Assembly (NCBI GenBank): GCA_036488735.1
Contig: DASXHC010000031.1
Location: 27,479-91,478, forward strand
DNA length: 64,000 nt
Origin: Terracidiphilus sp.
GTDB lineage: Bacteria; Acidobacteriota; Terriglobia; Terriglobales; Acidobacteriaceae
Direction of reading: 5' to 3'
The position numbers were made by a program, and so were the translations under genes. The notes under the pieces are model-generated. The model had not been told where the DNA came from and searched no databases. It saw nothing but the letters and a program-made list of their open reading frames with translations. Shown here piece after piece: positions 39,537-59,649 of this stretch. How positions within the stretch are numbered: the first letter of the stretch is position 1; each line of letters starts with the position of its first letter.

Positions 39537-39656
39537 TGCCGGCTCTTTCCTGGCCGCACTCCCAGCCCCCTCCGGATGCCTTCCGGTTTCCTCCTTCCTT
39601 CACGCGGTCTATGATGGGAGACGCATACAGCTCCCATGTTCCGCCAGGAGATATCC

Positions 39657-40733
39657 ATGAACGATCACGATGCCCTAACCAGCGGCCGCGGCCGCCGCGA
39701 CTTTCTTAAGGCCAGCGGCGCCGTCACCGCCGCCCTGCTGGCGCCTTCCGCCTTTGCCGTCACTCCCAACAAATCATTGCCGGCGCTGCCTTCCAATCCC
39801 GTTACGCAAAAGGCGATGCCCACCCGCAACCTCGGCAAGACCGGCTACAAGGTCGGCATCTTCTCCCTCGGCGGCCAGGCCTCCCTTGAGAAAGCCAACA
39901 ACTTCGATGTCGCCGTGCCCATCATCGAGCGCTCTCTCGATCTCGGCGTCAACTACATCGACACCTCCTCCATCTACGGCGGCCCGCTGCGCTGGAGCGA
40001 GCAATACGTCGGCAAGGTCATGGCCACCCGCCGCCATGAAGCGTTCCTCGCCACCAAGACCAAGGAGCGCACCCGCGACGCCTCCCTGCGCATGATTGAA
40101 AAATCACTGCAGCTGCTGCAAACCGATCACGTCGACCTGTGGCAATTGCACGACGTCGGCACCCTGTTCGACGTCAACGAGATCTTCGCCAAGGGCGGCG
40201 CCATGGAAGCCCTGCTCGAAATGCAGGATCAGAAAGTGGTGCGCCATCTCGGCATCACCGGCCACTACCGTCCCGACGCCTTGATGGAGTGCATTCATCG
40301 CCACGACTTCGACACCATCCTCATGGCCATGAACGCCGCCGATCCCCACCACTACAGCTTCAACGAAGCCCTCCTGCCTCTCGCCGTCGAAAAGCAAATG
40401 GGCATCATCGGCATGAAGATCCCCGGCCGCGGCCGCATTCTCGCGTCATGGAACCCGCCGCCCATCGAACAGCAGAAAAAATCCTGGGAAGGCATGACCA
40501 TCCAGACCAGTAATCCCGGCACCCTCACCATGCGCGAAGCCATGTACTACACCCTCTCGCGCCCCGTAAGCACCGTGATCATCGGCTGCGACACCATCGC
40601 CCAGCTTGAAGAAAATGTACAACTGGCCCGCGACTTCAATCCCATCACCGACAAGCACGCCGGCGAGCTTGTCGCCCGCGCCGAGCCATGCGCCAAGCCA
40701 TCGCTCTTCTTCCGCTTCTACGACCGCCCCTGA
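39657..40733 (+). CDS. Tat-signal aldo/keto reductase
   Basis: The ATG at 39657 follows AGGAG. Twin-arginine leader is GRGRRDFLKASGAVTAALLAP. The AKR core contains GVNYIDTSSIYG, DHVDLWQLHD and GITGH. Confidence 0.85.
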   Translation: MNDHDALTSGRGRRDFLKASGAVTAALLAPSAFAVTPNKSLPALPSNPVTQKAMPTRNLGKTGYKVGIFSLGGQASLEKANNFDVAVPIIERSLDLGVNYIDTSSIYGGPLRWSEQYVGKVMATRRHEAFLATKTKERTRDASLRMIEKSLQLLQTDHVDLWQLHDVGTLFDVNEIFAKGGAMEALLEMQDQKVVRHLGITGHYRPDALMECIHRHDFDTILMAMNAADPHHYSFNEALLPLAVEKQMGIIGMKIPGRGRILASWNPPPIEQQKKSWEGMTIQTSNPGTLTMREAMYYTLSRPVSTVIIGCDTIAQLEENVQLARDFNPITDKHAGELVARAEPCAKPSLFFRFYDRP

Positions 40734-41475: not shown

Positions 41476-42231
41476 ATGGAATGGAAGAATTTTTGGCGTT
41501 GGTCCGTCATGACCCTGGGTGCCTGCCGCGTGCCGATCCCCGAACCGTTCCGAATTCACATCGCCCCTGGCTGGTTCTTCATGGGGTCCGACGCTGGTCA
41601 GGCCGTGGAAAGCCCCGTTCATCGCGTCTGCCTCGAATCCTTTGCCATGGCGGCCACCCAGGTTACCGTTGCGGAGTACGCGCGTTTTCTGGACGCCACT
41701 GGAAACGTGCCGCCCCCTTACTGGAACGACCCCCGCTTCTCTCACCCCCGGCAGCCTGTGGTGGCGGTTTCCTGGTTTGACGCTGTGGCCTATTGCGCGT
41801 GGCTTTCCTCCATGACCGGCTCGCACTATCGACTTCCTACAGAAGCCGAGTGGGAGCGGGCCGCCCGCGGCGATGCCCAGGGAATGTCATTCCCTTGGGG
41901 CAATGATCCGCCGATGTCGCGCCCCGGCTACCACGCTCGCTGGAACACCGGCCCTGAGCCAGTCGGCCAATCCAGGCCGAATGACTACGGCTTATTCGAC
42001 ATGTGCGAGAACGTGCATGAGTGGTGCAGCGACTGGTTCGCGGCCGACTACTATGCGATCTCCCCTGAGCGGAATCCACAAGGACCGGAAGAAGGCAAGA
42101 GAAAAGCTTCGCGCGGAGGCTCCTGGCGCCACCAGATCAAGATTTCACAATGCTCGGCACGTTCCAGCATCCCGCCGGAATTCAAATACGCTGACTATGG
42201 CTTTCGAGTCGCTTGCAACGGCGCTGGCTGA
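41476..42231 (+). CDS. formylglycine-generating-enzyme (SUMF1/FGE-sulfatase) domain protein
   Basis: GWFFMGSD, VSWFDAVAYCAWLS, YRLPTEAEWERAARG, NVHEWCSDW and RGGSWR motifs. The start is uncertain: 41374, 41476 or 41509. Confidence 0.8.
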   Translation: MEWKNFWRWSVMTLGACRVPIPEPFRIHIAPGWFFMGSDAGQAVESPVHRVCLESFAMAATQVTVAEYARFLDATGNVPPPYWNDPRFSHPRQPVVAVSWFDAVAYCAWLSSMTGSHYRLPTEAEWERAARGDAQGMSFPWGNDPPMSRPGYHARWNTGPEPVGQSRPNDYGLFDMCENVHEWCSDWFAADYYAISPERNPQGPEEGKRKASRGGSWRHQIKISQCSARSSIPPEFKYADYGFRVACNGAG

Positions 42232-44969: not shown

Positions 44970-46799
44970 TCAGCCTTCGGCGTTCAGATACAAGCCGTAG
45001 TGTTCGTCCCGGATCGCTGCGAATGGCCGCAGCGTCATGGGCTCGGCCTCCGTCTTCACCTGCCAGTCGGTTGATCCCGCCGCCACCTGCGTCGCGCCCA
45101 GCAAGTCCTGGCGCCGCACCATGGCCGGCACCGCGCCCACTGTGAACAGCGCCAGCGGCCCGTGCACCGGCGCAACCATGCGTGGATGTTGGGGATCGAC
45201 AGCCTCGAGCGCCGTCGGCATGTCGAATTCCATCTCCATGCGATCGCCGTTCTTCCACGTGCGCTTGATCTGCGCGAACTTGCCCGGCTCGATCGTTCCA
45301 TCCATCCGCTTTCCGTTCACCGCGATCGTCGTCTTCGGACCCGCCCACGCCGGCACCCGCAGATACACGGCAAACGCAGCCTGCCTGTCTGTTTCCACCA
45401 CGATCTCCGTCGCCGGCGTGTGCGGATAATGGGTCTTTTGCGTCAGCGCGATGCCCGCCCCGCCACGGTTCCACCTCACGCGCGAAGGCACAAAAAGGTT
45501 TACGTATACACCATCATCGTCGTGGAAGTACGAACTGATCCCATAATCCGCCGTCACCTGCGAATAGGTGCCGGTGCAGCAGTGCCACTGATACGGGTGA
45601 TACACCTTGGAGCCGTCGCGGTTGTAGTCGGAGTAGTAGAAGCCGCGGCCGTCTTCCTGGATGGGTTTCGCTCCGAGGATGCAGTTGTAGAGCACCCTCT
45701 CCATGCTGTCGCCATAGCGGCTGTCGCGCGTCACGCGGGTGAGGTAGCGCGTGATTTTGAAATGCGCGTAGGAACCGCACGGCGTCTCAAAGCTGGAGTG
45801 CGTCTTGTCCAGGCTCTGCCCCAGTTCGCCGCTGCCCGGCTCGCGAAAACTTTCATCCGGCCCCCATCCGCCAGTCGCAAAGCTCTGAGCGCGAACCAAG
45901 TCGAACCCGTTGCGCGCCGCGCGCAAGTGCTTCTCGCTGCCCAATACGAGATAAGCCTGCATAGCGCTGCCCATCGCGTTCACATGGCTGTAGGCATGTT
46001 TGCCGGGCAGGACATTTTGCCCATTGGCAAGCGGGTCCCAATACCAGTCATCGGCAAGAAAGCGGACAGCGAGATCTTTGTAACGGCTGCCTGCACCACG
46101 CTGAAACGCGATGAACGCGTTCTCGGAAATTGTGTACGGCTCGTCCCAGCAGAACGAGTCGTCCTTGTGGGGTCGCGCGTATTGCTGCGCGCGCGAAATC
46201 CCGCCCGGCGGCAGGTGGGACGAAACCGAATCCAGCGTTTTGTCGAGAACTTTCAGCGCATCCGGCGCACTCGCGAATTGATGCGCGTCGAGCAGTCCGA
46301 TCGAGATTTTGTCGTAGGTGTAGGCGGGGAACCGGTTGTCGTCCCAGAAATGCGGTGAAATGGCAGGGGCGAAGTTGCGAACCAGGCGATGGACTTTTTC
46401 CTGCGTTGCCTTGTCGCCGGTGGCGGCGTAATCCCGCGACAGTCCGGAAAGGTATTGCCCGAAGCTGTGACCGGGGGCAAATCCGTTATTGGGCCGTGCG
46501 TCCAGATCGCTGAGCGGCGCCCAGCTATACCAGCCTCCCATGTCATCTCCGGGAGCAGGAATTCCGCCGCGCTGACGAAACGGTTTTAAGAGCCGGTCTT
46601 CATCGAGGCCGGCGTAGAAGGCATGGTTGGTTTGAAACTGCTGACGTAACGGGCCTTCGAGGAGTTCGACTTCGCTATAGTTGAACTGCTGAAGGGGTGC
46701 GGCCGTCGCGGCTTCGGCGAGCGATTTGCGGGAACAAAGCACGGATGCCGCAGCCAGAGCAGTGCCGGCCTTGAGAAAATCTCTGCGCGAAGATTTCAC
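44970..46799 (-). CDS. Tat-signal glycoside hydrolase family 127 (beta-L-arabinofuranosidase-like, DUF1680)
   Basis: Leader MKSSRRDFLKAGTALAAASVL. The size (609 aa) and the WHCCTGT Cys pair are typical of the GH127 Zn/Cys site. Confidence 0.75.
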   Translation of the reverse strand: MKSSRRDFLKAGTALAAASVLCSRKSLAEAATAAPLQQFNYSEVELLEGPLRQQFQTNHAFYAGLDEDRLLKPFRQRGGIPAPGDDMGGWYSWAPLSDLDARPNNGFAPGHSFGQYLSGLSRDYAATGDKATQEKVHRLVRNFAPAISPHFWDDNRFPAYTYDKISIGLLDAHQFASAPDALKVLDKTLDSVSSHLPPGGISRAQQYARPHKDDSFCWDEPYTISENAFIAFQRGAGSRYKDLAVRFLADDWYWDPLANGQNVLPGKHAYSHVNAMGSAMQAYLVLGSEKHLRAARNGFDLVRAQSFATGGWGPDESFREPGSGELGQSLDKTHSSFETPCGSYAHFKITRYLTRVTRDSRYGDSMERVLYNCILGAKPIQEDGRGFYYSDYNRDGSKVYHPYQWHCCTGTYSQVTADYGISSYFHDDDGVYVNLFVPSRVRWNRGGAGIALTQKTHYPHTPATEIVVETDRQAAFAVYLRVPAWAGPKTTIAVNGKRMDGTIEPGKFAQIKRTWKNGDRMEMEFDMPTALEAVDPQHPRMVAPVHGPLALFTVGAVPAMVRRQDLLGATQVAAGSTDWQVKTEAEPMTLRPFAAIRDEHYGLYLNAEG

Positions 46800-46929: not shown

Positions 46930-48177
46930 ATGGCTACCCTTGCTCAACAACTCACATTCGCACAAAAGCTTGACCAGCTGGCACGCGTAGCTGTCGAAGT
47001 TGGACTTGGACTCAAAGCGGGCCAGGAACTGCTGATGACGGCGCCCCTCGAAGCAGTCCCCCTGGCGCGGCGCATTACCGAACAGGCCTATCGCGCCGGC
47101 GCATCGCTGGTGACCACGCTCTACAGCGACGACGAGGCGACCCTGATGAGGTTCCGGCTCGCACCCGAGGAAGCCTTCGATCATGCGGCAGCCTGGCTCT
47201 ACGACGGAATGGGATCTGCCTTCAAGAGCGGCGCGGCGCGGCTGGCGATCACCGGGGCAAGTCCCTTGCTGCTGTCGAATGAGGATCCCGCCAGGGTTAG
47301 CCGCGCCAACCGTGCGGTTTCAAAAGCATATCGGCCCGCACTTGAATTGATTACCCGGCATGAGATCAACTGGACCATCGTGGCCTGCGCTACGACGGCA
47401 TGGGCAGCCGCGATGTTTCCGGACGACCCGCCCGACGTGGCTCTCGCCAAACAGTGGGATGCGATTTTCTCGACGTCGCGCGTCGACGTAGACGACCCGG
47501 TGGCCAACTGGAAGGCGCACGATGCGGGATTGCACAAGCGCGCGGACTATATGAACGCCAGGCGCTATGCCGCTTTGCACTACCGCGGTCCGGGAACGGA
47601 TTTTCGCCTGGGACTGGCCGACGATCACATCTGGATGGGCGGCGGCACCACCGCGGGCAACGGGCTTTATTGCATTCCCAATCTCCCCACGGAAGAGATT
47701 TTCTCCGCCCCCCACAAGGATCGCGCCGACGGCACGGTTACCGCGACCAAGCCGTTGTCCTACCAAGGCACGCTGATTGAGGGCATCCGGGTGCGCTTTG
47801 AGCACGGACGCATCGTGGAGGCCAAGGCCACGCGCGGGCAGGAAGTGCTGCAGAAACTCATCGACACCGACGACGGAGCGCGCCGGTTGGGAGAGGTCGC
47901 GCTGGTACCCCATTCGTCGCCCATTGCTGCCAGCGGATTACTCTACTTCAACACCCTCTTCGACGAAAACGCGGCTTCGCACATCGCCCTCGGCCAGGCC
48001 TACACCTCGTGCCTGCGGGAAGGAGACAAGATGTCGCCGGAACAACTAGCCGCGAAGGGCGCGAATGACAGCCTCATTCATGTGGACTGGATGATTGGGT
48101 CGAACCAGCTCGACATCGATGGCATCACGTCGTCGGGCACAGCCGAGCCGCTGATGCGCGGCGGAGAGTGGGTGTAG
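46930..48177 (+). CDS. M29-family aminopeptidase (AmpS/PepS/aminopeptidase T type)
   Basis: 415 aa. N-terminal KLDQLARVAVEVGLGLKAGQELLM and C-terminal ALVPHSSPIA...FDENAASHIALGQAY...HVDWMIG are typical of M29. Confidence 0.85.
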   Translation: MATLAQQLTFAQKLDQLARVAVEVGLGLKAGQELLMTAPLEAVPLARRITEQAYRAGASLVTTLYSDDEATLMRFRLAPEEAFDHAAAWLYDGMGSAFKSGAARLAITGASPLLLSNEDPARVSRANRAVSKAYRPALELITRHEINWTIVACATTAWAAAMFPDDPPDVALAKQWDAIFSTSRVDVDDPVANWKAHDAGLHKRADYMNARRYAALHYRGPGTDFRLGLADDHIWMGGGTTAGNGLYCIPNLPTEEIFSAPHKDRADGTVTATKPLSYQGTLIEGIRVRFEHGRIVEAKATRGQEVLQKLIDTDDGARRLGEVALVPHSSPIAASGLLYFNTLFDENAASHIALGQAYTSCLREGDKMSPEQLAAKGANDSLIHVDWMIGSNQLDIDGITSSGTAEPLMRGGEWV

Positions 48178-48336
48178 ATGGAGCGTACGGTTTTCTCTAC
48201 AACGTTTCAGGACATTCGCTGCCGGGCAGGGCAGGCGCATCCAAGTGGAAGCGGACCATTTGCGGAGAACGATCTGCGCCGATCGACCGCCCCTGCTGTT
48301 CACTCGGGAGCTCGTACGAGCAAAGAGAGCAAACCC

Positions 48337-49011
48337 ATGCAAATTCTCCAAGCTGGTTTGATTTTGACGCTGACTCTTACGCCGATCATACTGCGCGGTC
48401 AGACAAATGCCGCCGCACCGCAACCGGAGGCGCCGGCCGCCGTGGCCTCGGCGCCGGTAACGGCATCCTCCGTGTTGGAACCCGTGTTGACGCAGGTGCA
48501 GACCACTCTCACGTCTCTGAAGACAGACAAGTGGAAGAAGGGATCAGTGCGCGACGAGGCGGCGGAAAACGTTAAAGACGTACTCCACGATCTGCAGACC
48601 AATCTGCCGCCGCTGGTCAACGCGGCTGATGGAGCGCCCGGTGCGCTGAGCAAGGCCATTCCCCTCATGAAGCATCTTGACGCGCTCTACGACGTCATTC
48701 TGCGGATTGAGGAGGGGAGCCGCGTCTCTGCTCCCAGCGACCAGATTGACTCGCTGGAGCAGACGCTCAAGAGCTTCGGGACCGCGCGGATTACTTACTA
48801 CGACAGCCTGCAGCAGAGTGCGTCGGGCCAGGAAAAACAGGTCGTCGATCTGCAAGCCACGCTCAAGGCCCAACAGGCGGCAGCCCAAGAGGCCAAGCCG
48901 GCGCCGGCTCCTGTGCCCTGCACGCCGCCCAAGCCAACAGTCAAGAAAAAGAGACCTGCCCCGGCGAAGGCGCCGCCCGCAACGGCTCCCGCGCAGCCGA
49001 AAACTCCGTGA
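48337..49011 (+). CDS. exported hypothetical protein with Pro/Ala/Lys-rich C-terminus
   Basis: The ATG at 48337 gives signal peptide MQILQAGLILTLTLTPIILRGQT. The upstream 53 codons of ORF 48178..49011 have no signal-like or conserved character. Confidence 0.5.
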   Translation: MQILQAGLILTLTLTPIILRGQTNAAAPQPEAPAAVASAPVTASSVLEPVLTQVQTTLTSLKTDKWKKGSVRDEAAENVKDVLHDLQTNLPPLVNAADGAPGALSKAIPLMKHLDALYDVILRIEEGSRVSAPSDQIDSLEQTLKSFGTARITYYDSLQQSASGQEKQVVDLQATLKAQQAAAQEAKPAPAPVPCTPPKPTVKKKRPAPAKAPPATAPAQPKTP

Positions 49012-49021
49012 TGTATGCGGA

Positions 49022-50035
49022 CTAGCCTAACGGGCTGAATTTCACTGCGAGCTTGTCGAAGTCCACCGTGCCCAGGCCGCGATTCGCAGCCATCTGCAAG
49101 TAAGGCAGATGACCAGCATCGAGGTTCCAATATGCCTTGGCAACATAGGCGTCGAGAGCGACAGGGTCGGTGCTCGCGACGACGGTCTTCTTAAGGGCCA
49201 CGTCTTCGAGGTTGCCGCCGGTGGGGCCGTTACGAAGCAGGATGCGATAGCAGTCCATGATGGTAAGCGTCGGCAGCATGAACGCGGCAAGGTCGGCGAG
49301 GCTCTGGTGAATCTGCTGGTGGAGGCGGTTGCGTTCGCCACCGAGAATGCCGTACCAGTTCTTCATGCCCAGCGTGCAGCCGGTAAGACCGTGATGCTTG
49401 GCGATGGGCAGGTTGAGGATTTTGTCGGCCTCGAGAAACGGCGCGAACACTGGCCAGCTCTTCAGCGCGACTCCGCCCATATCGACTTCGCGGAAGAGTT
49501 CCGGATCGGGAAGGATCACTTCCGCACCTTCGGCCCGCGCGGCAGCCTGGATGCCAGAGCGCTGGAAACAACGGCGCGGCTCGTTGCAACTGACGTCTGT
49601 AACGATGACGCGTTTGGCGCCCGCCTGCCAGCATTGGCGCACCACCTCCGCGACCAGTTCAGGGTTGGTATTGGCAGCCTGCTCGGGTGTGCGATCCCAG
49701 GCAATGTTGGGCTTGATGACGACCACATCCTGGCGGGCGATGAAGCGGGACATCCCGCCGAGATCGGCTAACGCGCGTTGAACCAGAGCCCGGGGCTCAC
49801 CGCCCTGCACCACGCTCATATGCGGCAGTTGCGGATTTGCGGTTGTGCGATGATCGCGGCGGGCCTGTTCTGCCAGCGCAGGAACCGGGCGGGCGCTGCG
49901 GGTGCTGAGCCAATAGCCGCCGCCCGCGGCCACAGCCGCGATGCCGCCCGCGCGCAACACGTGAAGCATGGCTTCACGACGGGTGAGGCCCTGCGGCGGA
50001 TTCGGCACGTCGGATGTTTGGTTTTCCTTGGCCAT
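49022..50035 (-). CDS. Tat-signal DUF362 domain protein (paralogue B)
   Basis: From the ATG at 50035: MAKENQTSDVPNPPQGLTRREAMLHVLRAGGIAAVAAGGG, then the DUF362 pattern VVIKPNIAW...LPIAKHHGLTGCTLGMKNWYG...IMDCYRILLRNGPTGG...ASTDPVALD. Confidence 0.8.
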   Translation of the reverse strand: MAKENQTSDVPNPPQGLTRREAMLHVLRAGGIAAVAAGGGYWLSTRSARPVPALAEQARRDHRTTANPQLPHMSVVQGGEPRALVQRALADLGGMSRFIARQDVVVIKPNIAWDRTPEQAANTNPELVAEVVRQCWQAGAKRVIVTDVSCNEPRRCFQRSGIQAAARAEGAEVILPDPELFREVDMGGVALKSWPVFAPFLEADKILNLPIAKHHGLTGCTLGMKNWYGILGGERNRLHQQIHQSLADLAAFMLPTLTIMDCYRILLRNGPTGGNLEDVALKKTVVASTDPVALDAYVAKAYWNLDAGHLPYLQMAANRGLGTVDFDKLAVKFSPLG

Positions 50036-50126
50036 GGAGTTTCTTTTCACGCTGCCTTCGTTTTTGCGTTTCCACATCGTATTCGCCGAAGCAAACGCAA
50101 ATGGGGGCTCTCTTCCTGGTAAGCCG

Positions 50127-51134
50127 CTAGACCTCGAGCAGATGGATCTTCTGCGGGTCGTTAGTGCCGAGATTGTGCGCGGCATCGGCGGCCGTGGCAA
50201 TGTAGCGCGGCGGACGCCCAGCAGCCTCAAGTGTCTGGAAGCCGGACTCGGCGCGCTTGCGCTCGATCATTTGCCAGGCGGTGTGGTCGATGGCTACGCG
50301 GTCTTCGCCCACGACCAGCGCATTGGGGTACCACAGGCGCTCGGGATGAAAGCTGGGACCGCCATCGTATACAGACGACATGGCATCGCCGATGGTGAAG
50401 CGAACCTTCTCCCGGATCACCGGGATGCAATTGAGGTCGGCAACTCCGGGATTGCAACCCCCCGCATGCAGGTCAAAAGGCCGATCGACCACGCCGTACA
50501 TGTTCTTCATGGCAAAGGTCACCCCTGACATCTGGTGATCCTTGAGGATCGGCAATCCAATGACCATGGCGCATTCGCGCGTGAGTATTTTGGAGAGTTT
50601 GATTTTTGCGCTTCCCCAGCTTTCCTGATTGTCTTCGTATCCGGAGACATCGGAGCCGAAACAACGAACGCGGCTGGGGTCGGTGTTGAGGGTGAGGCCG
50701 CAGACCTGGAGGTCGCGGGCGTTGCGATCCCATACCAGGATATTGCCCGGCTTAACGCCGGCCTGCTGTAACCGCTCCGCGACGGCGAACACCAGGGCCG
50801 CGTGCGTAGAAATGCCCTTGCCGCCGAGCCCATTGGTCTTGAGACCGATGACCTTGCCCTCGGCATTGCCTTGCGCGATGATATGCTGCCAGGCTTCAAC
50901 AGGCTTGACGCGCCCGGTGTAGGAAGCGATGGCGCGGTCGAGAAGCTTCGCCACGCGCTTCTCATCGAGTTGGCCGGACCCATCATGCAGGGCAGCATCG
51001 CGGGCGATCACGACGCGCGATTTTCCCGCATCGGCATGCGCCTCAAGGGTTTTAGCCAGCGCCCATTTCCCTTGCGTCCCCAGTACCAGGGCCCCTGTGG
51101 CTGCTTCTTTCAAGAATTCACGGCGGCTTTCCAT
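50127..51134 (-). CDS. Tat-signal DUF362 domain protein (paralogue A)
   Basis: From the ATG at 51134: MESRREFLKEAATGALVLG (consensus S-R-R-x-F-L-K), then VIGLKTNG...LPILKDHQMSGVTFAMKNMYG...IGDAMSSVYDGGPS...GEDRVAID. Confidence 0.8.
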   Translation of the reverse strand: MESRREFLKEAATGALVLGTQGKWALAKTLEAHADAGKSRVVIARDAALHDGSGQLDEKRVAKLLDRAIASYTGRVKPVEAWQHIIAQGNAEGKVIGLKTNGLGGKGISTHAALVFAVAERLQQAGVKPGNILVWDRNARDLQVCGLTLNTDPSRVRCFGSDVSGYEDNQESWGSAKIKLSKILTRECAMVIGLPILKDHQMSGVTFAMKNMYGVVDRPFDLHAGGCNPGVADLNCIPVIREKVRFTIGDAMSSVYDGGPSFHPERLWYPNALVVGEDRVAIDHTAWQMIERKRAESGFQTLEAAGRPPRYIATAADAAHNLGTNDPQKIHLLEV

Positions 51135-51183
51135 GGCGAACCTCGCGATCGGTTGGCGGCGAGCGACTCCTCGCCGGGCGGTT

Positions 51184-51681
51184 TTACAACTTGGCTTCGA
51201 CAGCGTGAGCCAGGGCCAGCAGTGCCTGTTGCGTATCCGCTCCTCCCTGATAACCAACGATGCGGACAAGATATGGGCCCTTGCGGAAAGCGACACTTTG
51301 CGCGTAGGCGAAACCGCCATCGCCAAGCTGCACCGTCTTCCCGTCGGCCGATTGGGCATTCTTCAGAATTTTGACCGCACCCGCGTCGTCCTTCATGGTG
51401 TTCACGTCGACCACCGCTTCGAGCTTGGACTGGTAGTTGTAATCGGACGTGGACGTGGAGACGACGCCCGCCTGGATGTACTGCTCCGAATCGCCGTCGA
51501 TATATTGCCACAGGTCCTTGGCATCAAAGACGCGGGTATCGCCGCTCTTCTGCCAACCGGAAACTTCGCCCGACGCGGGAAATGGATTCACGACATGTTT
51601 CTTGCATGCAGACAAACTGAAAGCGGCGACCAAGGCCAGCGCGACAACACCGAGTTTCAAACCATGGGAATGAATGTGCAC
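51184..51681 (-). CDS. lipoprotein of unknown function
   Basis: GTG start 8 nt after AAGGAG. Lipobox AAFSLSAC. 165 aa. Sits 29 nt after the polyferredoxin gene. Confidence 0.65.
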   Translation of the reverse strand: MHIHSHGLKLGVVALALVAAFSLSACKKHVVNPFPASGEVSGWQKSGDTRVFDAKDLWQYIDGDSEQYIQAGVVSTSTSDYNYQSKLEAVVDVNTMKDDAGAVKILKNAQSADGKTVQLGDGGFAYAQSVAFRKGPYLVRIVGYQGGADTQQALLALAHAVEAKL

Positions 51682-51710
51682 GAAACTAACTCCTTTGACC
51701 CGTAGGCCCC

Positions 51711-53447
51711 TTACTTACGGTTAAGCAGAATTTGGCTGCTGGGGGAGCGGCTTTCGCCGATGCTGGTGACGTAGACGGCGGGCCTCTCCTGCAGTGGGCA
51801 GGCATACTCGCACGCGCCACAGCCGACACAACGGCTGGGATCGACGCGCGGCTGCTTGAGGCGTTTGGTGTTGCCCGCGGAGTCGATGACATCGGCTTCC
51901 TCGACATAAATTGCCTTGGGCGAAACGGGGCACCATTCTTCGCAGACGATGCACTCGGTGGCCTCGCCCCAGGGCAGGCAGCGCCCGCGGTCGTAGAAGG
52001 CTGTGCCGAGGCGAACCGGCTGACCGGCCTGCGCATTCACCCCTACCACCCATCCTTTTTCCCGGGCCGTGATCTGCCAGATGGCGCCGGTTGGGCAAAC
52101 GTCTGAACAGAGCACGCAGCTGGGCTCGCAATAGCCGATGCGCGGCACCAGCATGGGCGTCCACAAGCCCTGCAAGCCGGCTTCATCGAGGGTCGGATGG
52201 AGCGAATTGTTGGGACACACCTTCATGCACTCGCCGCAACGAATGCAGCGAGAAAGAAATTCCGTCTCATCGAGTGACCCCGGCGGACGCAACAGGCGGT
52301 CATGACGGCCCTTGCCCAAGCCGGTGTTGGCACGCATCAGCGGAACCGCGGCGGCTCCCGCAGCCAGCCCGGTAAGGGTCTTGCGGCGATTGAGGTCGGG
52401 CGAAGCCACCTCGCGCTCGTTGCGGAAGAACTTGAACTTAAGGCTTTGATCCGGACAAGCGCCCACGCAGTTCATGCACATGAGGCACTCGGACTTGCGC
52501 CACGGCACGCCGCCAATGGGATCGTCGCCGCCCTGGCAATTCAAGAGGCAGCGGTTGCAATGATTGCAAGTGGTTTCGTCCTTATGCAGACCCAGCAGCG
52601 AAAAACGCGAGGCGACGCCGAGCAATGCTCCCAGCGGGCAGATGGAGCGGCACCACAGCCGCGTGACGCGCAGGCTGGCCGACAGGATGACAAGGAAAAG
52701 ACAGCCAAGCACGAGGCCCTGGGCGAAGTGGGTTTGACGGAAATCGAGAATCGTGGCCTGCAACACGCTATGCGCCACCGTACCCGTTGTCTTGATCGCC
52801 GCGACGTGACTGTGTTCGAGCGGGGCGAGCACGGCGCGCGCCGCGAAGTTGAACGCGGGCAGAAGCGCCAGCCCGACCGAGCGAACGAGGAGACTGAAAG
52901 GATCAAGCCAGCCCAGCGCCATGGACCCAAAGCAGGCGGCCACCAGGCCGGCAATCAGGACCACATACTTCACCGTCTGCCAGCCTTTGTAGCGATTGGA
53001 TTCGATGCGCTGCTTTCCGCGTTTGGCTTCGGAATGCATAGTGCCGATCCAGTGCTGCATCGTGCCCAGGGGACAGATCCATCCGCAGAAAAAGCGGCCC
53101 AGAAGGATGGTGGGGACCAGGACGACGAGACTCAACAGCAGGCCGCGATAGAGAGCGTGGCTGGCCAGCGCGTTGGAGAGGGCGACCAGCGGATCGATCA
53201 GAAAAAACAGGCGAACCGGGGCGCGCAGATGGATGTCCCCGGTCCCGCCCGGGGAGGGACGCAGGGAAGTGAAGATGAGCAGGGCCATGAAGACCAACAG
53301 AAAGAAGATCTGCGAGATCCTGCGCCACCGCGGCAATCGGGAACGGGCCACGAAACTCCTCCGCGCAGATCTTGCGCACGAAGCCAGTCTGAATGCGCCG
53401 GGAAGACTCCTGCGAGTGATCCAACGAAATCTCGAGGCGCATCGCAT
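51711..53447 (-). CDS. membrane polyferredoxin: NapH/MauN-like integral-membrane domain fused to a NapG-like 4x[4Fe-4S] domain
   Basis: TM helices carry CGWICPLG and CRSICPLG (CX3CP) motifs. Next come the clusters CNHCNRCLLNC and CLMCMNCVGACP. An internal NRRKTLTGLAAGAAAVPL segment follows. The C-terminal part holds CIRCGECMKVCP, CVLCSDVCP, CIVCEEWCP and CVGCGACEYACP. Confidence 0.85.
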   Translation of the reverse strand: MRCASRFRWITRRSLPGAFRLASCARSARRSFVARSRLPRWRRISQIFFLLVFMALLIFTSLRPSPGGTGDIHLRAPVRLFFLIDPLVALSNALASHALYRGLLLSLVVLVPTILLGRFFCGWICPLGTMQHWIGTMHSEAKRGKQRIESNRYKGWQTVKYVVLIAGLVAACFGSMALGWLDPFSLLVRSVGLALLPAFNFAARAVLAPLEHSHVAAIKTTGTVAHSVLQATILDFRQTHFAQGLVLGCLFLVILSASLRVTRLWCRSICPLGALLGVASRFSLLGLHKDETTCNHCNRCLLNCQGGDDPIGGVPWRKSECLMCMNCVGACPDQSLKFKFFRNEREVASPDLNRRKTLTGLAAGAAAVPLMRANTGLGKGRHDRLLRPPGSLDETEFLSRCIRCGECMKVCPNNSLHPTLDEAGLQGLWTPMLVPRIGYCEPSCVLCSDVCPTGAIWQITAREKGWVVGVNAQAGQPVRLGTAFYDRGRCLPWGEATECIVCEEWCPVSPKAIYVEEADVIDSAGNTKRLKQPRVDPSRCVGCGACEYACPLQERPAVYVTSIGESRSPSSQILLNRK

Positions 53448-53667
53448 GGAATGCGTTTTATTCAGGCCCGTTGAAAAACGGCATTGTGCCTGCCAATCGA
53501 TAGGCGATGCTTAAGAAAATCGATTTCCTGCGCCGGAATCACACGAGCGCACGCTGTCCATGTACTCAATATGATTGAGGTTTGAGCAGCCCGCAGACAG
53601 TGATGGTCATCACCTGGAACCGCTGTGTCAGGAGCGGCAGCACCCGATCTTCGCTCGAGCTCACAGC

Positions 53668-54414
53668 TCAGAGCCGATTGATCAGGGTGGCGATGCAGGC
53701 GGCTCCGAAACCATTGTCGATATTGACCACGCAGACATTGGGCGAGCAGGTGTTCAACATGCCGAGCAGTGCGGCAACCCCGCCAAACGACGCTCCATAG
53801 CCAACGCTGGTAGGCACTGCCAGCACCGGCGCATTGACCAGGCCGCCCACCACTGTGGGCAGGGCGCCTTCCATGCCGGCGCACACGATGAGAACGCGCG
53901 CCGACTGCAGCGATGTGCGCTGTGCAAGCAGGCGATGAATGCCGGCCACGCCGACGTCGGCGATGAGTTCCACGGTGTTGCCCATCAGGCGGGCGGTAAC
54001 CACCGCCTCTTCCGCGACCGGAAGATCGCTGGTGCCGGCGCAGACTACCGCGATCGTTCCCTTGCCCGGCGTGGGCGGCGCCTGTTCCAGCGTAATGGCG
54101 CGCGCGGTTTCGTGGTACGTGGCGCGCGGTTCGAGAGCCATCACGGCATCGAAGCACTCACGGGACGCGCGCGTGGCCAGCACATTGCCTCCGGCCTGCG
54201 CCATGCGGGCAAAGATCGCGGCCACTTGCGTTGCCGTTTTACCCGACGCGAAGATGACCTCCGGCATGCCGGTGCGCAGGGCGCGATGGTGGTCCAGCTT
54301 GGCAAACCCGAGATCCTCAAACGGCAAGTCGCGGAGGCGGTCCATGGCATCCGGCACCGGGGTGCGTCCTTCGCGCACCTCATTCAAAAGCGCCTCGATC
54401 TGTGCGCGATTCAT
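53668..54414 (-). CDS. larB: nickel-pincer cofactor biosynthesis protein LarB (PurE-like carboxylase/hydrolase)
   Basis: From the ATG at 54414 (ATGA overlap with the larC stop): ...FAKLDHHRALRTGMPEVIFASGKT...IAVVCAGTSDLPVAEEA...VCAGMEGALPTVVGGL...AVPTSVGYG. Confidence 0.9.
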   Translation of the reverse strand: MNRAQIEALLNEVREGRTPVPDAMDRLRDLPFEDLGFAKLDHHRALRTGMPEVIFASGKTATQVAAIFARMAQAGGNVLATRASRECFDAVMALEPRATYHETARAITLEQAPPTPGKGTIAVVCAGTSDLPVAEEAVVTARLMGNTVELIADVGVAGIHRLLAQRTSLQSARVLIVCAGMEGALPTVVGGLVNAPVLAVPTSVGYGASFGGVAALLGMLNTCSPNVCVVNIDNGFGAACIATLINRL

Positions 54415-55871
54415 CAGCGATCCTTCCTGACTGTTGCGGGGAGTGCAGCGAAGAGGCGCGCGGCCTCTTGCATGACTTGCTTGAGCGGGAGAGAGTGTTG
54501 CGCGGCGAGCTTGCGGCAATCTTCGTACTCGGGAGACGCGTTGGCAATTTCACCGGAGGGCCAGCGCGCGATCTTGATCTGCACCGGACCCCATGCCGTT
54601 TCCACTGCGGCGAATTCACGCGCCAAGGCAATTTTGTTCTCGATGCGCCAGTGCAGGCCGATGGTTGTGGTTTCGCGAAACAGGATATCGCGCATTGCGG
54701 GCACCAGTTCGGGACTGGCCAGCACGGTTAATTGGATGCCGGTGCGGCCCTTCTTCATTTGTACTGGGATGCGATAAACATCCCAAGCGCCGGAGGCAAG
54801 CAACAATTCGCTGACATACGCCAGCACTTGCGGAGTGGAATCGTCGATCACTGTCTCAATGATCGCGATGGGCGCAACGGCGGACGTTTCTTCGCTTGCT
54901 TCGCCAACCAGAACACGCACCAGGTTCGGCTGGCCGGGCGTGTCGCGGCCCCCGGCGCCGTATCCCCTGGCTGTGACGCGCATGGCAGGCAAGGATGCAT
55001 ATTCCACGTTGAGCATGCGAAGAAGAGTGGCTCCTGTGGGCGTGACGCGCTCCATGGGAGGTCCGGCTGCATAGACGGGCGCATTGCCTAACAGCGCGAG
55101 CGTGGCGGGAGCAGGCACGGGCAGTGTGCCATGTGCGCAATCTACTGTGCCGCTGCCCACGTTGAGCGGTGAGGCGAGCCAGCGGTCGACACCCAGGTAT
55201 ACGGCCGCCGCGGCTGCGCACACGATGTCCACGATGGTGTCGACGGCGCCGACTTCATGGAAATGCACGCGCTCAACCGGAATGGAATGGATCGCAGCCT
55301 CGGCCTCGCCCAGCATCTGGAAAGCGCGCGCCGCGTTGCCCTTCACTGCATCGGGGAGAGATGCGTCGCGAAGGATGGCAAGAATCGTCGAGAGGGAGCG
55401 ATGGTGCCCATGTTCATGCGCATGAGTATGTGTATGGGAGTGAGTATGCGTATCCGCCGGCCCGTGCGTGTGCTCGTGCTCATGCGTGTGCTCGTGCGTG
55501 TGCTGGTGCAGGGGCGCAGGAGCATCCTCATGCAAATGCGCGTGCGAGTGTTCATGGGTATGTTCATGCGCATGATGGTGAACATCAGAATCCGCATGCG
55601 CATGGGTGTGCGCTTCGTGGGTGTGTTCTCCCGATGCGGAGTGGTCATGCGCATGATTTGCGTCATGCGCCTGGTCCTCCGCGGTAATGACGTCGACCTT
55701 GGTCCCGGTCAAACCGCCGCGCATCACTTTGCGGGATTCGAGACGAGCGCCGACATTGAGCGAAGCGGTAATTTCCGCAAGATGACTGAGGGGAACTCCG
55801 GCGTCGACGAAAGCTCCCAGCAGCATGTCGCCGCTGATGCCGGAAAAGCATTCCAAATATCCAATACGCAT
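54414..55871 (-). CDS. larC: nickel insertion protein LarC (DUF111) with a greatly expanded His-rich region
   Basis: MRIGYLECFSGISGDMLLGAFVDAG N-terminus and HFHEVGAVDTIVDIV. 485 aa. Residues about 68-157 contain 36 His. Confidence 0.9.
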   Translation of the reverse strand: MRIGYLECFSGISGDMLLGAFVDAGVPLSHLAEITASLNVGARLESRKVMRGGLTGTKVDVITAEDQAHDANHAHDHSASGEHTHEAHTHAHADSDVHHHAHEHTHEHSHAHLHEDAPAPLHQHTHEHTHEHEHTHGPADTHTHSHTHTHAHEHGHHRSLSTILAILRDASLPDAVKGNAARAFQMLGEAEAAIHSIPVERVHFHEVGAVDTIVDIVCAAAAAVYLGVDRWLASPLNVGSGTVDCAHGTLPVPAPATLALLGNAPVYAAGPPMERVTPTGATLLRMLNVEYASLPAMRVTARGYGAGGRDTPGQPNLVRVLVGEASEETSAVAPIAIIETVIDDSTPQVLAYVSELLLASGAWDVYRIPVQMKKGRTGIQLTVLASPELVPAMRDILFRETTTIGLHWRIENKIALAREFAAVETAWGPVQIKIARWPSGEIANASPEYEDCRKLAAQHSLPLKQVMQEAARLFAALPATVRKDR

Positions 55872-55916
55872 CGAGGCTGATTTTACGGTATTTGGAACGG
55901 TAGTGTGTAGAGGGGA

Positions 55917-56789
55917 TCAGGCGCCGCGCCGCAACAAGACATCGGCGGGCAGAATGGCGTTCATCGAACCGGAACGAAATCCAGCGCAATCCAGGGTCAC
56001 ATACTTGAAGCCGAGATTGCGCAGGTTCGCGGTGATGGCGTCGAGCGTTTCCATGGTCAGCGCGCGCGGCATCTCCGCGCGGGCTATTTCGACGCGGGCC
56101 AGCTCCCCGTGGTGTCGTACGCGAAATTCCCGGAAACCCAGTTGCCGCATGCTCTCTTCGCCACGCTCCACCTGCTCCAGAACTTCGCGAGTTACGGTAC
56201 GGCCATACTCTACTCTTGAAGAGAGACACGGCGCAGCGGGACGGTCCCACAGCGGATACCCCGCAGCTTTGGCGAGGGCGCGCACTTCAAGCTTGGTCAA
56301 GCCCGCATCCGCCAGGGGCGCAAGCACTTCGTGCTCCTGCGCGGCACGCTGGCCGGGCCGAAAGTCGCGCGTGTCGTCCACGTTCATGCCATACGCGATA
56401 TTGGTGAAGCCAAGTTCGGCTCCCAAGGCTTTCATGCCGTCGAAAAGCTCCGTCTTGCAGTGGAAGCAGCGGTTGGCATCGTTGCGCTGATATTCGGGCT
56501 TCTCGAGTTCTTCGGTGAGGATGACGCGCAGCGGCATATTGATCGAGACGGCGAAGGCGCTGGCCTGTTCCATATCGCGGCGCGCGAGGCTGGGCGAGTC
56601 GGCCAGCACGGCAAGCATGCGGTCGCCGAGCACGCGATGCGCAGTGGCCGCAAGATAAGCCGAATCCACGCCGCCCGAATAGGCAACCATCACGCTGCCC
56701 AATCGCTGAAGCTCACTCTCAAGCGCTTGGAGCTTGCTTGTTGTGTCGGTTGATAACTGGGGAAGACCGGTTTGCGCAGGCGCCGCCAT
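55917..56789 (-). CDS. larE: ATP-dependent sacrificial sulfur transferase LarE (PP-loop ATPase)
   Basis: PP-loop VAYSGGVDSAYLA and a conserved Cys in AAPCLSSRV. 290 aa. Lies 45 nt upstream of larC. Confidence 0.85.
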   Translation of the reverse strand: MAAPAQTGLPQLSTDTTSKLQALESELQRLGSVMVAYSGGVDSAYLAATAHRVLGDRMLAVLADSPSLARRDMEQASAFAVSINMPLRVILTEELEKPEYQRNDANRCFHCKTELFDGMKALGAELGFTNIAYGMNVDDTRDFRPGQRAAQEHEVLAPLADAGLTKLEVRALAKAAGYPLWDRPAAPCLSSRVEYGRTVTREVLEQVERGEESMRQLGFREFRVRHHGELARVEIARAEMPRALTMETLDAITANLRNLGFKYVTLDCAGFRSGSMNAILPADVLLRRGA

Positions 56790-56879
56790 GGGGCCGATTA
56801 TACCTGCAGACAGATGCCAAACGCACGAAAGCCGGGAGGCCCTCCCGGCTTTCGCCGCAGTTGCAGCGCGCTGAAACGT

Positions 56880-57869
56880 CTACTTGTGCGCACCTACCAG
56901 CATCTGGCTTTCGATCCATTGGTAGGTTTTCGCCATGCCTTCCTTGAGGCGGATTGAAGGCTCCCAACCCATGAGTTGCAGGATCTTTGTGTTGTCGCTG
57001 TTGCGCCCGTTGACGCCTTTGGGTGCATCCAGCTTGTACTTGCGCTCCAGTTTGATGCCGGCGATCTCTTCCACGATGTCAACCAGTTGATTGATCGTGA
57101 CCAGTTCGTTGGAACCGAGATTGAGCGGTTCATGGATATCGCTCGCCATGATCATTTGCGTGCCCTGAGTGCAGTCGTCAATGTACATGAAACTGCGGGT
57201 CTGCTTGCCGTCGCCCCAGATTTCAATATCATGCTTGCCGGACATCTTCGCTTCCAACACTTTGCGAATCACGGCGGCGGGAGCCTTTTCGCGGCCGCCG
57301 GTCCAGGTGCCCAGCGGCCCGTACACGTTGTGATAGCGCGCCACCCGGCATTGCAGGCCGAAGTCCTCTTCGAAGTGGCGGCACATGCGCTCACTGAACA
57401 GCTTCTCCCAGCCGTATCCGTCCTCGGGCAGGGCGGGATAGGCATCTTCTTCTTTCAGGGCCACGACGTCGGCGCTCTTCTGCTTGTCGCCGTTATAGAC
57501 ACACGCCGAGGAGGAATAGAAAAATCGCTCCACTCCTTCTTCACGGGCAGCCATCAGCATGTGCGTATTGGTTAACACACTAAGCATGCACAGGGCCTTG
57601 TTGTTCTCGATAAAGCCCATCCCGCCCATATCGGCGGCGAGTTGAAAGACCACCTTCGCCCCCTTGGCGGCGGTATGACAGTTGTCCTTGTCTTTGAGAT
57701 CGAGGCTCAGGCTTTCCACATCGCGAGACACCTGGTACCACTCATCCAACGGCTTGATATCGATAGCGCGGACAACGTCGACTCCGTTCTTAAGAAGAGC
57801 TTGCACGAGATGCCCGCCTATAAATCCACCGGCGCCACAAACAACAGCTTTTTCATTTCTAAGGTTCAT
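56880..57869 (-). CDS. GDP-mannose 3,5-epimerase-like NAD-dependent epimerase (extended SDR)
   Basis: GAGGFIGGHL. ADMGGMGFIENN...RFFYSSSACVY...DGYGWEKLFSE...RYHNVYGPLGTWTGGREKAPAAVIRK closely follows the GME pattern as I recall it from plant GME. Confidence 0.75.
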   Translation of the reverse strand: MNLRNEKAVVCGAGGFIGGHLVQALLKNGVDVVRAIDIKPLDEWYQVSRDVESLSLDLKDKDNCHTAAKGAKVVFQLAADMGGMGFIENNKALCMLSVLTNTHMLMAAREEGVERFFYSSSACVYNGDKQKSADVVALKEEDAYPALPEDGYGWEKLFSERMCRHFEEDFGLQCRVARYHNVYGPLGTWTGGREKAPAAVIRKVLEAKMSGKHDIEIWGDGKQTRSFMYIDDCTQGTQMIMASDIHEPLNLGSNELVTINQLVDIVEEIAGIKLERKYKLDAPKGVNGRNSDNTKILQLMGWEPSIRLKEGMAKTYQWIESQMLVGAHK

Positions 57870-58233
57870 TGATTAGGCTCCTAAAGTCAGAACGGTGGTC
57901 GGCATTACCGACACATGAATGTGAGTAAGCGGTCCCTTCGAACCCAGGCTTCACGTTGGTATTTCAGTTTGAATTCCGGGCCGATCTGGGACGAACGTAT
58001 TTATCGCAATAGTATAAGACGGTCTGATGCCGGGGCGACGGAAAAGGTTGACGGCTGTTAAAAGTTCGCGCAAGAGTAACAGACTGCACCGGCCAGAAAG
58101 ACCAGCACAGTTATAATGAAGAGACCTTAGTTCAAAGCTGATCCACAGGCTCTCATACTTCATCGGCCCTTTATAAAATGCCGAGTCGAGTTTCAGCTCT
58201 GCCGCACGGAGCAAAAGGAGATATCACCACCGC

Positions 58234-59649
58234 ATGGTAAAGCCAGTTTCCATTTGTGTGATTGGATCGGGTTATGTCGGTCTCGTGGCTGCGGTTTGTT
58301 TCGCCGAGATGGGCCATCAGGTCACTTGCGTAGACAACGATGAAGCGAAGGTGAAGACCCTGCGTGAAGGCGGGGTCCCGATTTTCGAAGAGCATCTGCC
58401 TGAACTGCTGGGGAAGCACCTGGGCCGCGGCGTCGATTTCACCTCGGACCTGAGCGGAGCGGTGGAACGTAGCGAAGCAATCTTTATTGCAGTAGGCACG
58501 CCCCAGGGCGATACCGGCGCAGCCGACCTTTCGTATGTCGAGGCAGTTGTCTCTGAGATCGCGCGAGCGATCAAGAGTTACAAGGTGATCGTCGAGAAGA
58601 GCACGGTGCCGGTCTACACCAATGAGTGGATTCAGCGTGTGCTGCATCGGCGCGGCGTCGATCCGGACCACTTCGACGTCGTATCGAATCCTGAATTTCT
58701 GCGCGAAGGCACAGCAGTCGGCGACTTCCTGCACCCCGATCGCATCGTGGTCGGCGCCGGCACTGAGCGCGCATCAGACTTGCTGCGGCGCATCTACGCA
58801 CCTCTCACAGGCGGCAGCTATTATGACCGGGTCGATGCCCTTCCCGGCGCCTGCAATGCGGCTCATCCCGCGCAGTTGCTGGTGACTTCACAACAGAGCG
58901 CCGAGATCATCAAGCATGCCTCGAACGCCTTCCTGGCGCTGAAGATCTCGTTCATCAATGCGGTTGCCAATCTGGCTGAGAGCGTGGACGCGGACATCGA
59001 AGACATCGCCGCCGGAATCGGCCTGGATAGCCGCATCGGTCCGAAATTCCTGCGCGCCGGACTCGGGTACGGGGGCTCCTGCTTCCCCAAAGACGTAGCA
59101 GCGTTTCACTGGGTGGCGCAACAACAGGGTTTGAACTTCCAACTGCTCGAAGAAGTACGCCGCATCAACGACGCGCAGAAAGATGTCTTCTACAACAAGG
59201 TGCGCGCGGCGCTGTGGACTCTGCGCGGCAAGCGGCTCGCGGCCCTGGGACTGGCATTCAAATGCGATACGGATGACATTCGCGAATCGCCGGCATTGGA
59301 CGTGATACGCAGGCTGATTGAAGCGGGGGCGACTGTGACCGCCTACGATCCCGCCGCAACCGAGCGCGCCAAAGCAGTGCTGCCGCCGTCTGACCAGATG
59401 CGTTACGCCGCCAACGTGTACGAGGCCGCGAACGAAGCGGATGCAGTGCTGATTCTGACCGACTGGAAAGAGTTTGCCGAGATCGACTTGGTCGAGCTGA
59501 ATCGCGCCGTGCGTTTCCCCATCGTGATCGACGGACGTAATTTGTATAAGCCGCAGCACATGGCCGACCATGGCTTCACCTACGTCAGCATCGGCCGTCC
59601 GGCGAATTACACCGCACAACAAGGCAAGCCGCGCAAGCTCCTTCTGTAG
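58234..59649 (+). CDS. ugd: UDP-glucose 6-dehydrogenase
   Basis: ICVIGSGYVGLV, NPEFLREGTA and catalytic GYGGSCFPKD. 471 aa. Confidence 0.9.
   Translation: MVKPVSICVIGSGYVGLVAAVCFAEMGHQVTCVDNDEAKVKTLREGGVPIFEEHLPELLGKHLGRGVDFTSDLSGAVERSEAIFIAVGTPQGDTGAADLSYVEAVVSEIARAIKSYKVIVEKSTVPVYTNEWIQRVLHRRGVDPDHFDVVSNPEFLREGTAVGDFLHPDRIVVGAGTERASDLLRRIYAPLTGGSYYDRVDALPGACNAAHPAQLLVTSQQSAEIIKHASNAFLALKISFINAVANLAESVDADIEDIAAGIGLDSRIGPKFLRAGLGYGGSCFPKDVAAFHWVAQQQGLNFQLLEEVRRINDAQKDVFYNKVRAALWTLRGKRLAALGLAFKCDTDDIRESPALDVIRRLIEAGATVTAYDPAATERAKAVLPPSDQMRYAANVYEAANEADAVLILTDWKEFAEIDLVELNRAVRFPIVIDGRNLYKPQHMADHGFTYVSIGRPANYTAQQGKPRKLLL

Follow-up and report, generated by a model that had tools for sequence, protein, structure and literature searches.

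Which proteins make use of nickel-pincer nucleotide (NPN) in organisms that carry the genes for making it, and could a pair of exported proteins of the DUF362 family be among them? This question is raised by a 64 000-nt stretch of contig DASXHC010000031.1 from Terracidiphilus sp. (hereafter the window), in which the interval 49022–51134 is made up of two tandem minus-strand genes, both assigned to Pfam DUF362 (PF04015), with the cofactor genes larE, larC and larB directly upstream of the DUF362 module on the same strand. Of the genomes analysed in one study, about 15% contain larB, larC and larE but no LarA homologue (mBio 2024, PMC11796402), and as of mid-2026 the use of pincer cofactors had been reported for the LarA family, for one ornithine cyclodeaminase and for aldo-keto reductases of the NphT type (PMC13524815). 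We report here that the two DUF362 proteins, termed paralogues A and B, are shortened LarA-fold relatives without the LarA C-terminal domain, that their His-x9-Lys likeness to His174 and Lys184 of LarA reflects shared ancestry and not chance, and that they are good candidates for nickel-pincer enzymes of a new type.

RESULTS

A near-invariant His/Lys motif in two exported DUF362 proteins

Both paralogues scored above the PF04015 gathering threshold of 24 bits (68.6–69.3 bits for A and 177.8–178.4 bits for B), and the predicted local distance difference test (pLDDT) values of their AlphaFold models were 90.4 and 94.2, respectively. When A and B were compared by BLASTP, the sole aligned stretch was one of 30 residues around a His/Lys motif. 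The key codons of this motif, all on the minus strand, are located at 50535–50537 (H200), 50505–50507 (K210) and 50466–50468 (H223) in A and at 49391–49393 (H215), 49361–49363 (K225) and 49319–49321 (H239) in B. The spacing from the first His to the Lys was 10 residues in both proteins and that from the Lys to the next His was 13 in A and 14 in B. An earlier note on this DNA had quoted the two motif strings, given these spacings and set them beside a LarA sequence. Both strings were recovered verbatim on the minus strand, the spacings were borne out, and the LarA sequence of the note agreed residue for residue with chain A of PDB entry 5HUQ, in whose numbering H174, K184 and H200 are 10 and 16 residues apart, as the note had said.

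The bare H-x9-K pattern is expected 0.27–0.55 times per protein of such composition, and a second copy was found in A at residue 84. The pattern alone is therefore uninformative, whereas the placement of the residues and their conservation exceed chance. Conservation was counted in 127 representatives of the relatives of B (clusters at 50% identity; 35–60% identical to B where the match was full-length) and in 50 orthologues of A from species-level genomes (39–76% identical). In the B family, K213, H215 and G229 were each kept in 126 sequences, K225 and R235 in 125 and H239 in 122; among the A orthologues, K198, H200 and K210 were each kept in 49 and H223 in all 50. Both Lys residues, the first His and the Gly following the second Lys were invariant in a joint alignment of A and B. 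The pattern K-x-H-x9-K-N-x2-G, together with a His at Lys+15, was shared by distant members of the family from Streptomyces, Parabacteroides, Acetoanaerobium and Subdoligranulum, so that the Lys and His were near-invariant across 127 + 50 + 4 sequences, including members from Streptomyces, Parabacteroides and Clostridia. The earlier note had made its proposal depend on such conservation across DUF362 relatives. Its G-x-[ST]-x3-K context was confirmed in part: the Thr/Ser was kept in 125 of the 127 B relatives, and the Gly, kept in 40, did not hold.

Each paralogue begins with a twin-arginine (RR) pair and a hydrophobic stretch (MESRREFLKEAATGALVLG in A and TRREAMLHVLRAGGIAAVAAGGG in B), as in proteins exported by the twin-arginine translocation (Tat) system, while the Pfam TAT_signal model scored neither of them at E up to 0.01. 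The RR pair was kept in 119 of the 127 relatives of B, which fits the export of a protein already loaded with its cofactor. For B, the gene callers chose an alternative start at 50077 that yields a protein of 351 aa.

Homology of DUF362 and LarA

Among known systems, one of the closest to A and B is the lactate racemase LarA with its superfamily (Pfam Lar_N, PF09861/DUF2088, and LarA_C, PF21113; PDB entries 5HUQ, 6C1W, 2YJG, 6D6Z, 9EIA, 9Q3J and 4NAR). Clan CL0471 of Pfam already joins DUF362 to DUF2088, the family of the LarA N-terminal domain (PMC11770544), and the LarA literature treats DUF362 as an outgroup (PMC11770544; PMC7955657). True LarA proteins scored 22.5–26.1 bits with the Pfam DUF362 model, whose cut-off is 24 bits, and the match spanned LarA residues 82–245, a region that contains His108, His174, Lys184 and His200.

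There is no solved DUF362 structure in the PDB, and a phmmer search of the PDB with B gave zero matches at E up to 10. The AlphaFold models of A and B were used as Foldseek queries against the PDB. For B, the top 19 matches were all members of the LarA superfamily (E 1.6e-6 to 4.6e-5; next match 3.5e-3), and for A the same was true of the top 10 (E 4.2e-6 to 4.4e-4; next match 0.097), the gap in E between the last LarA match and the next match being two to three orders of magnitude. For both models, all matches with E <1e-3 were LarA-superfamily chains, and their query-normalised TM-scores were 0.34–0.48.

At the level of residues, hhalign placed D204, H215 and K225 of B on D163, H174 and K184 of LarA with both a shallow and a diverse LarA alignment. 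With a DUF362 hidden Markov model (HMM), 19 LarA sequences were searched, including homologues just 27–36% identical to Lactobacillus plantarum LarA; an alignment was reported for 15 of them, and the local best match covered His174 in 10 of these and Lys184 in 9. In the reverse direction, a LarA HMM matched a DUF362 member reading KHHVLVGFSGGMKN, and a ferredoxin-fused DUF362 protein was aligned over LarA model positions 36–189. By alignment, the counterparts of His174 are H215 of B and H200 of A; those of Lys184, by hhalign and both HMM directions, are K225 and K210, where the alignment statistics alone are weak. We thus read the residue map as an agreement among weak alignments within a homology set by the other evidence.

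Taken together, the Pfam clan, the score of the Pfam model, Foldseek and the residue-level alignments are four independent lines by which DUF362 and LarA are homologous. The His-x9-Lys likeness to LarA that the earlier note had pointed out is upheld as one of shared ancestry, and its reservation that the likeness could be chance is not; nor do the local alignments set the motifs in non-equivalent elements, for the best of them put the DUF362 His and Lys on His174 and Lys184.

The strongest match of the LarA HMM to any DUF362 protein (13.4 bits) was found elsewhere, between residues 32–82 of the protein P0354 and LarA model positions 235–286. It pairs the start of the LarA C-terminal domain with the N-terminal strand-helix-strand of DUF362 (VVVKPNIGW vs DIVITTNGGY), a pairing that may reflect an internal repeat in LarA or an alternative domain correspondence.

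Departures from LarA

A and B resemble LarA in the fold of the N-terminal domain, LarA-superfamily structures being their sole significant Foldseek matches, in having aligned invariant counterparts of His174 and Lys184, and in the adjacency of lar genes. They differ from it in being about 90 residues shorter (335–337 aa vs 424 aa), in their Tat export and in their gene context, where the LarA-type link to hydroxy-acid metabolism genes is replaced by a membrane polyferredoxin. Neither Lar_N nor LarA_C matched A or B at E up to 10, whereas true LarA showed both. No conserved counterpart of LarA His108 was found after the strand ending at D147 of B, where columns 148–152 were variable and His occurred in at most 15 of the 127 relatives. 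With one acid/base residue and no counterpart of His108, a racemase mechanism is unlikely.

The third histidine also departs from LarA, the spacing from Lys to His being 13–15 in DUF362 and 16–26 in LarA. The invariant His at Lys+13–15 is a candidate counterpart of the nickel ligand His200. For H239 of B, hhalign gave a pairing with LarA H217 and a gapless HMM alignment gave one with the Lys+14 His of a single LarA homologue, neither of them statistically secure. The nickel ligand was found at Lys+16 in all 19 aligned LarA sequences and is at Lys+26 in two solved LarA homologues (PMC12611868); since the spacing varies, it is not diagnostic. In a low-confidence hhalign alignment, K108-P109-N110 was opposite I69-S70-S71 of LarA, one position before Asp72, where a strand-loop motif behind the first strand reads KPN in B and SSD in LarA, and R115 was opposite Arg75; Asp72 (ribose) and Arg75 (phosphate) contact NPN in LarA (PMC12611868). 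An Arg or Lys was present at the position of B R115 in 106 of the 127 relatives.

Gene neighbourhood of the DUF362 module

The genes and sequence features of the window are listed in Table 1. Next to A and B are the genes for a DUF6599 protein and a membrane polyferredoxin. The polyferredoxin has 4–5 transmembrane segments, two Cys-x2-Cys-Pro motifs and six [4Fe-4S]-type Cys motifs, two of which precede and four of which follow an internal RR-hydrophobic segment. Its scores against the NCBIfam equivalogs NapH (94.9 bits, cut-off 234) and NapG (93.9 bits, cut-off 269) were both below the cut-offs. It resembles the NapG/NapH quinol dehydrogenase (and the MauM/MauN and NosR-type ferredoxins) in that its N-terminal membrane part is NapH-like and carries the Fer4_5 (Cys-x2-Cys-Pro) motifs, while the part after the RR-hydrophobic segment, with four clusters, is NapG-like; it differs from that system in that a single chain holds both parts, nap genes are absent and the partner is a DUF362 protein. 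The larB gene is separated from the polyferredoxin gene by a gap of about 220–380 nt. A scan of the larger open reading frames (ORFs) between ∼39.6 and 64 kb of the window detected no LarA gene, and no Rfam riboswitch or other RNA family was found in 48000–58500.

Table 1. Features of the window, with coordinates counted from its first nucleotide
Feature	Position	Strand	Remarks
NphT-type aldo-keto reductase with Tat signal	39636..40733	+	Pfam PF00248 and TAT_signal; best PDB match 9YEB, E=8.6e-34
FGE-sulfatase-domain protein	41374-42231	+	exported or periplasm-oriented
GH127 beta-L-arabinofuranosidase-like protein with Tat signal	44970-46799	-	
277-aa ORF	48178-49011	+	Pro/Ala-rich tail; directly downstream of B, other strand; no Pfam match
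DUF362 paralogue B	49022..50035	-	337 aa; Tat-like T-R-R-E-A-M-L; LarA-like fold
Motif K213-H-H215-x9-K225-N-x2-G229-x5-R235-x3-H239 of B	49319..49399	-	KHHGLTGCTLGMKNWYGILGGERNRLH; kept in 122-126 of 127 relatives
DUF362 paralogue A	50127..51134	-	335 aa; start MESRREFLK; Tat signal S-R-R-E-F-L-K; LarA-like fold
Motif K198-D-H200-x9-K210-N-x2-G214-x8-H223 of A	50466..50543	-	KDHQMSGVTFAMKNMYGVVDRPFDLH; kept in 49-50 of 50 orthologues
DUF6599 protein, predicted lipoprotein	51184..51681	-	165 aa; Pfam PF20244; lipobox L-S-A-C at residues 23-26
Membrane polyferredoxin	51711..53288	-	Pfam Fer4_5 and Fer4 families; start possible up to 53447
Terminator-like hairpin and T run	53479..53495	-	consensus match only; between the larB and polyferredoxin genes
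larB	53668..54414	-	NCBIfam LarB equivalog 291.9 bits (cut-off 175)
larC (LarC1 and LarC2 domains)	54414..55871	-	NCBIfam LarC1 196.8 and LarC2 137.5 bits, both above cut-off; Pfam Ni_insertion
larE (sulfur transferase)	55917..56789	-	NCBIfam TIGR00268 317.6 bits (cut-off 150)
729-aa ORF	59688-61877	+	no Pfam or NCBIfam match

The LarC protein of the window is 485 aa long; the NCBIfam LarC1 match and most tblastn LarC matches begin at its residue 158, and the Pfam model covers residues 5–467 with 375 model positions, a pattern implying that the protein has either a large insertion or an N-terminal stretch that has diverged. On the other side of the module, the FGE-sulfatase-domain and GH127 proteins, both exported or periplasm-oriented, may point to a carbohydrate substrate context.

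Neighbourhoods in other genomes were counted in 80 species-level GTDB loci with 10-kb flanks, which were searched for with a 4-sequence alignment as query and were chiefly from Acidobacteriota, with a few from Myxococcota, Gammaproteobacteria and Verrucomicrobiota. The B orthologue had the polyferredoxin gene as a neighbour in 67 of the 80 loci and paralogue A in 57, and DUF6599 accompanied the module in at least 51, as it also did in the lineages L062, L097 and L102. The core unit is DUF362 with the polyferredoxin, usually joined by DUF6599. It was also seen in Parabacteroides and in the metagenome lineages L097, L099 and L102, with the Parabacteroides and L099 loci having the DUF362 and polyferredoxin pair only. 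The genes larE, larC and larB were directly upstream on the same strand in 15–16 of the 80 loci, all from Acidobacteriaceae/Terracidiphilus. A collection of plasmids contained DUF362 relatives in only four records, which is insufficient for statistics.

An adjacency of lar and DUF362 genes was also found in an unrelated phylum, Actinomycetota. In Streptomyces sp. NBC_01450 (NZ_CP109481.1; locus L094, 1035–9140), larC-larB-larE are followed by genes for a chorismate-binding enzyme and a DAHP synthase and then, divergently, by those for a cyclase and a DUF362 protein, the last being ∼3.8 kb from the lar genes. This DUF362 protein is 418 aa long, has a Cys-rich C-terminal extension and no Tat signal, and keeps H162-x9-K172 and H187. 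Pfam scans of the larger ORFs found no LarA or aldo-keto reductase within 8 kb. The larCBE-DUF362 cluster looks like one for secondary-metabolite biosynthesis; a LuxR regulator and a BAHD-type transferase are encoded nearby.

Clostridia and archaea have cytoplasmic DUF362 proteins that are fused to a ferredoxin. These share with A and B the K-x-H-x9-K-N-x2-G pattern, a His at Lys+15 and the link to 4Fe-4S clusters. They differ in having no Tat signal and in carrying the iron-sulfur (Fe-S) domain as a fusion, not as a separate membrane protein. Pfam remarks that DUF362 occurs in some iron-sulfur proteins (PMC7955657).

Two further loci carried single lar-related genes. In lineage L102, which is unrelated, a stand-alone LarC2-like protein of 151 aa (16347–16802) that is 31% identical to residues 338–466 of the window LarC is encoded 7.6 kb from a DUF6599, DUF362 and polyferredoxin module. 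In the acidobacterial locus L065, a true LarA homologue (14026–15057; 34% identical to L. plantarum LarA) is encoded ∼3 kb downstream of the B orthologue.

NphT-type reductases near the module

NphT is a nickel-pincer-dependent aldo-keto reductase (PDB 9YEB) whose His144/Lys200 motif binds the nickel-pincer mononucleotide (Nat Chem 2026, PMC13524815). It is a non-LarA protein encoded beside larBCE in LarA-less genomes, with the Lys as tether and the His as nickel ligand (PMC13524815). That study targeted proteins without LarA homology, so DUF362 was outside its scope (PMC13524815). The NphT-type reductase of the window keeps the equivalents of His144, Lys200, Asp47 and His106, and is predicted from its sequence to be a periplasmic NPN-dependent reductase.

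Reductases of this kind neighbour the DUF362 module in several lineages, although NphT is a TIM barrel with a fold unrelated to that of DUF362. Two operons of distant lineages combine them directly: L097 (2811–7882) encodes DUF6599, DUF362, the polyferredoxin and a Tat reductase with the His/Lys motif in overlapping genes, and L062 (8311–13162) encodes the polyferredoxin, DUF362, DUF6599 and a Tat reductase with the same motif. The L062 reductase bears a C-terminal 4Fe-4S dicluster domain and, if it is of the NPN type, would be an enzyme fused directly to Fe-S clusters. Since this locus has a His/Lys reductase and no lar genes within 10 kb, pincer use is not called into question where lar genes are missing from the vicinity. 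The module was also found near reductases with the His144/Lys200 motif in L056, L057 and L075, and L037 has similar neighbours with a canonical reductase that does not have the His/Lys motif.

DISCUSSION

A candidate periplasmic oxidoreductase

We judge it about an even call that A and B bind NPN through K210 and K225, are exported in folded form by the Tat system and constitute, with DUF6599 and the polyferredoxin, a quinone-linked periplasmic oxidoreductase. NPN is a two-electron hydride carrier. LarB, LarE and LarC, encoded directly upstream, would make NPN in the cytoplasm, and the cofactor would be attached to the folded DUF362 proteins before their Tat export, with the further invariant His (H223 in A and H239 in B) possibly completing the coordination of nickel. 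In the periplasm, the DUF362 proteins, the DUF6599 lipoprotein and the Fe-S domain of the NapH/NapG-like polyferredoxin would form an oxidoreductase linked to the quinone pool. NPN would take hydride from a substrate or give hydride to it, the single conserved His would act as acid/base, and electrons would pass along the Fe-S chain; such an enzyme would not be a racemase. We infer NPN binding by A and B from the gene context, and likewise infer the formation of the complex, the direction of electron flow and the substrate.

A DUF362 protein is favoured as the client of the cofactor because the lar genes, where present in the 80 loci, always abut the module, because a reductase is missing within 10 kb from at least six of the loci concerned and because none was found in the Streptomyces cluster either. 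In a wider formulation, Tat-exported DUF362 would be a further NPN scaffold that works with the polyferredoxin and DUF6599, often together with an NphT-type reductase, in a respiratory-type periplasmic oxidoreductase that accepts hydride and is wired to quinones through Fe-S clusters; we put this forward tentatively, as possible rather than probable.

Several observations weigh against a pincer-dependent DUF362 oxidoreductase. The lar adjacency in the 80 loci is confined to a single clade, and lar genes are absent from many of the loci for which the full 10 kb upstream was available. The window reductase belongs to a known type of NPN client and is encoded 13 kb from larBCE, so that the adjacency of lar genes is by itself no proof of cofactor use by DUF362; orthologues of this reductase were found downstream of B in 8 loci, 6 of which also carry lar genes. 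The terminator-like hairpin sets larB apart from the module, so that the lar genes may be transcribed separately from the DUF362 genes, as two units in tandem. The hhalign score for DUF362 against LarA (20.3) was not significant against a column-shuffle null of 16.2 ± 2.5, being reached by 9 of 100 shuffles, and hhalign was therefore not counted as independent proof of homology. A PDB hmmsearch with a 115-sequence DUF362 profile gave chance matches to pectate lyases alone and did not reach LarA. The downstream His of DUF362 may not be equivalent to the nickel ligand His200. We know of no precedent for the coupling of NPN to one-electron Fe-S clusters. Finally, the accessible literature, which leaves most subscription journals outside, contained no functional study of DUF362, PF04015, DUF6599 or CL0471.

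Alternative explanations

The first alternative is that DUF362 has kept the LarA-type fold with its Lys and His and binds another ligand or metal, or none, so that the lar genes serve the NphT-like reductase and the module is the electron-transfer or accessory partner of that reductase. We regard this as a serious contender that falls short of an even chance. It would account for the close match of the window reductase to NphT with the retained His144 and Lys200, for the reductase orthologues downstream of B, for the L097 and L062 operons in which a His/Lys reductase is part of the module, and for the absence of lar genes within 10 kb from most module loci; the Parabacteroides and L099 pairs of DUF362 and polyferredoxin also agree with it. 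However, each of the 15–16 lar loci has its lar genes directly next to the module and on the same strand, a reductase is absent from at least six of those with a full 10 kb downstream, and Streptomyces has larCBE with DUF362 where no reductase or LarA was found. This explanation also leaves the invariance of the NPN-tethering Lys and its partner His across DUF362 unexplained.

It is improbable, in our estimation, that DUF362 binds NPN and converts no substrate, serving to carry, protect or re-oxidise the cofactor for periplasmic NPN reductases. Such a role would suit its recurrence in operons with His/Lys-motif reductases and a LarA-like protein that has neither the LarA C-terminal substrate-binding domain nor a counterpart of His108. 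On the other hand, many module loci have no reductase within 10 kb, the Streptomyces DUF362 protein has neither a Tat signal nor a reductase partner, and the covalent attachment of NPN in NphT and LarA makes a transfer from protein to protein hard to picture (PMC13524815).

A chance match of short motifs with no structural equivalence, for which the 0.3–0.5 expected H-x9-K occurrences per protein, the second copy in A and the hhalign score inside its shuffle null might speak, is very improbable and already contradicted, as Foldseek returned LarA structures only for both models, the Pfam DUF362 model scored LarA above its own cut-off, and independent alignments mapped identical, near-invariant residues.

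Implications

The kinship of DUF362 and LarA is already known and recorded in Pfam clan CL0471. In the literature searched, DUF362 figured only as a phylogenetic outgroup, and the accessible part contained no report of nickel-pincer binding by DUF362; an earlier one is possible in subscription journals. New here are the findings that DUF362 has retained the Lys that tethers the cofactor in LarA, together with the partner His, that it is encoded beside the cofactor genes in two unrelated phyla, and that it travels with Fe-S proteins and NphT-type reductases. If the proposed role is true, the large DUF362 family would gain a cofactor, and nickel-pincer chemistry would reach the periplasm and be tied to Fe-S/quinone electron transfer. 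The DUF362 module would then hold the first nickel-pincer enzyme that carries out net redox chemistry through an electron-transfer chain, and could explain part of the cases in which an organism makes the cofactor and has no LarA.

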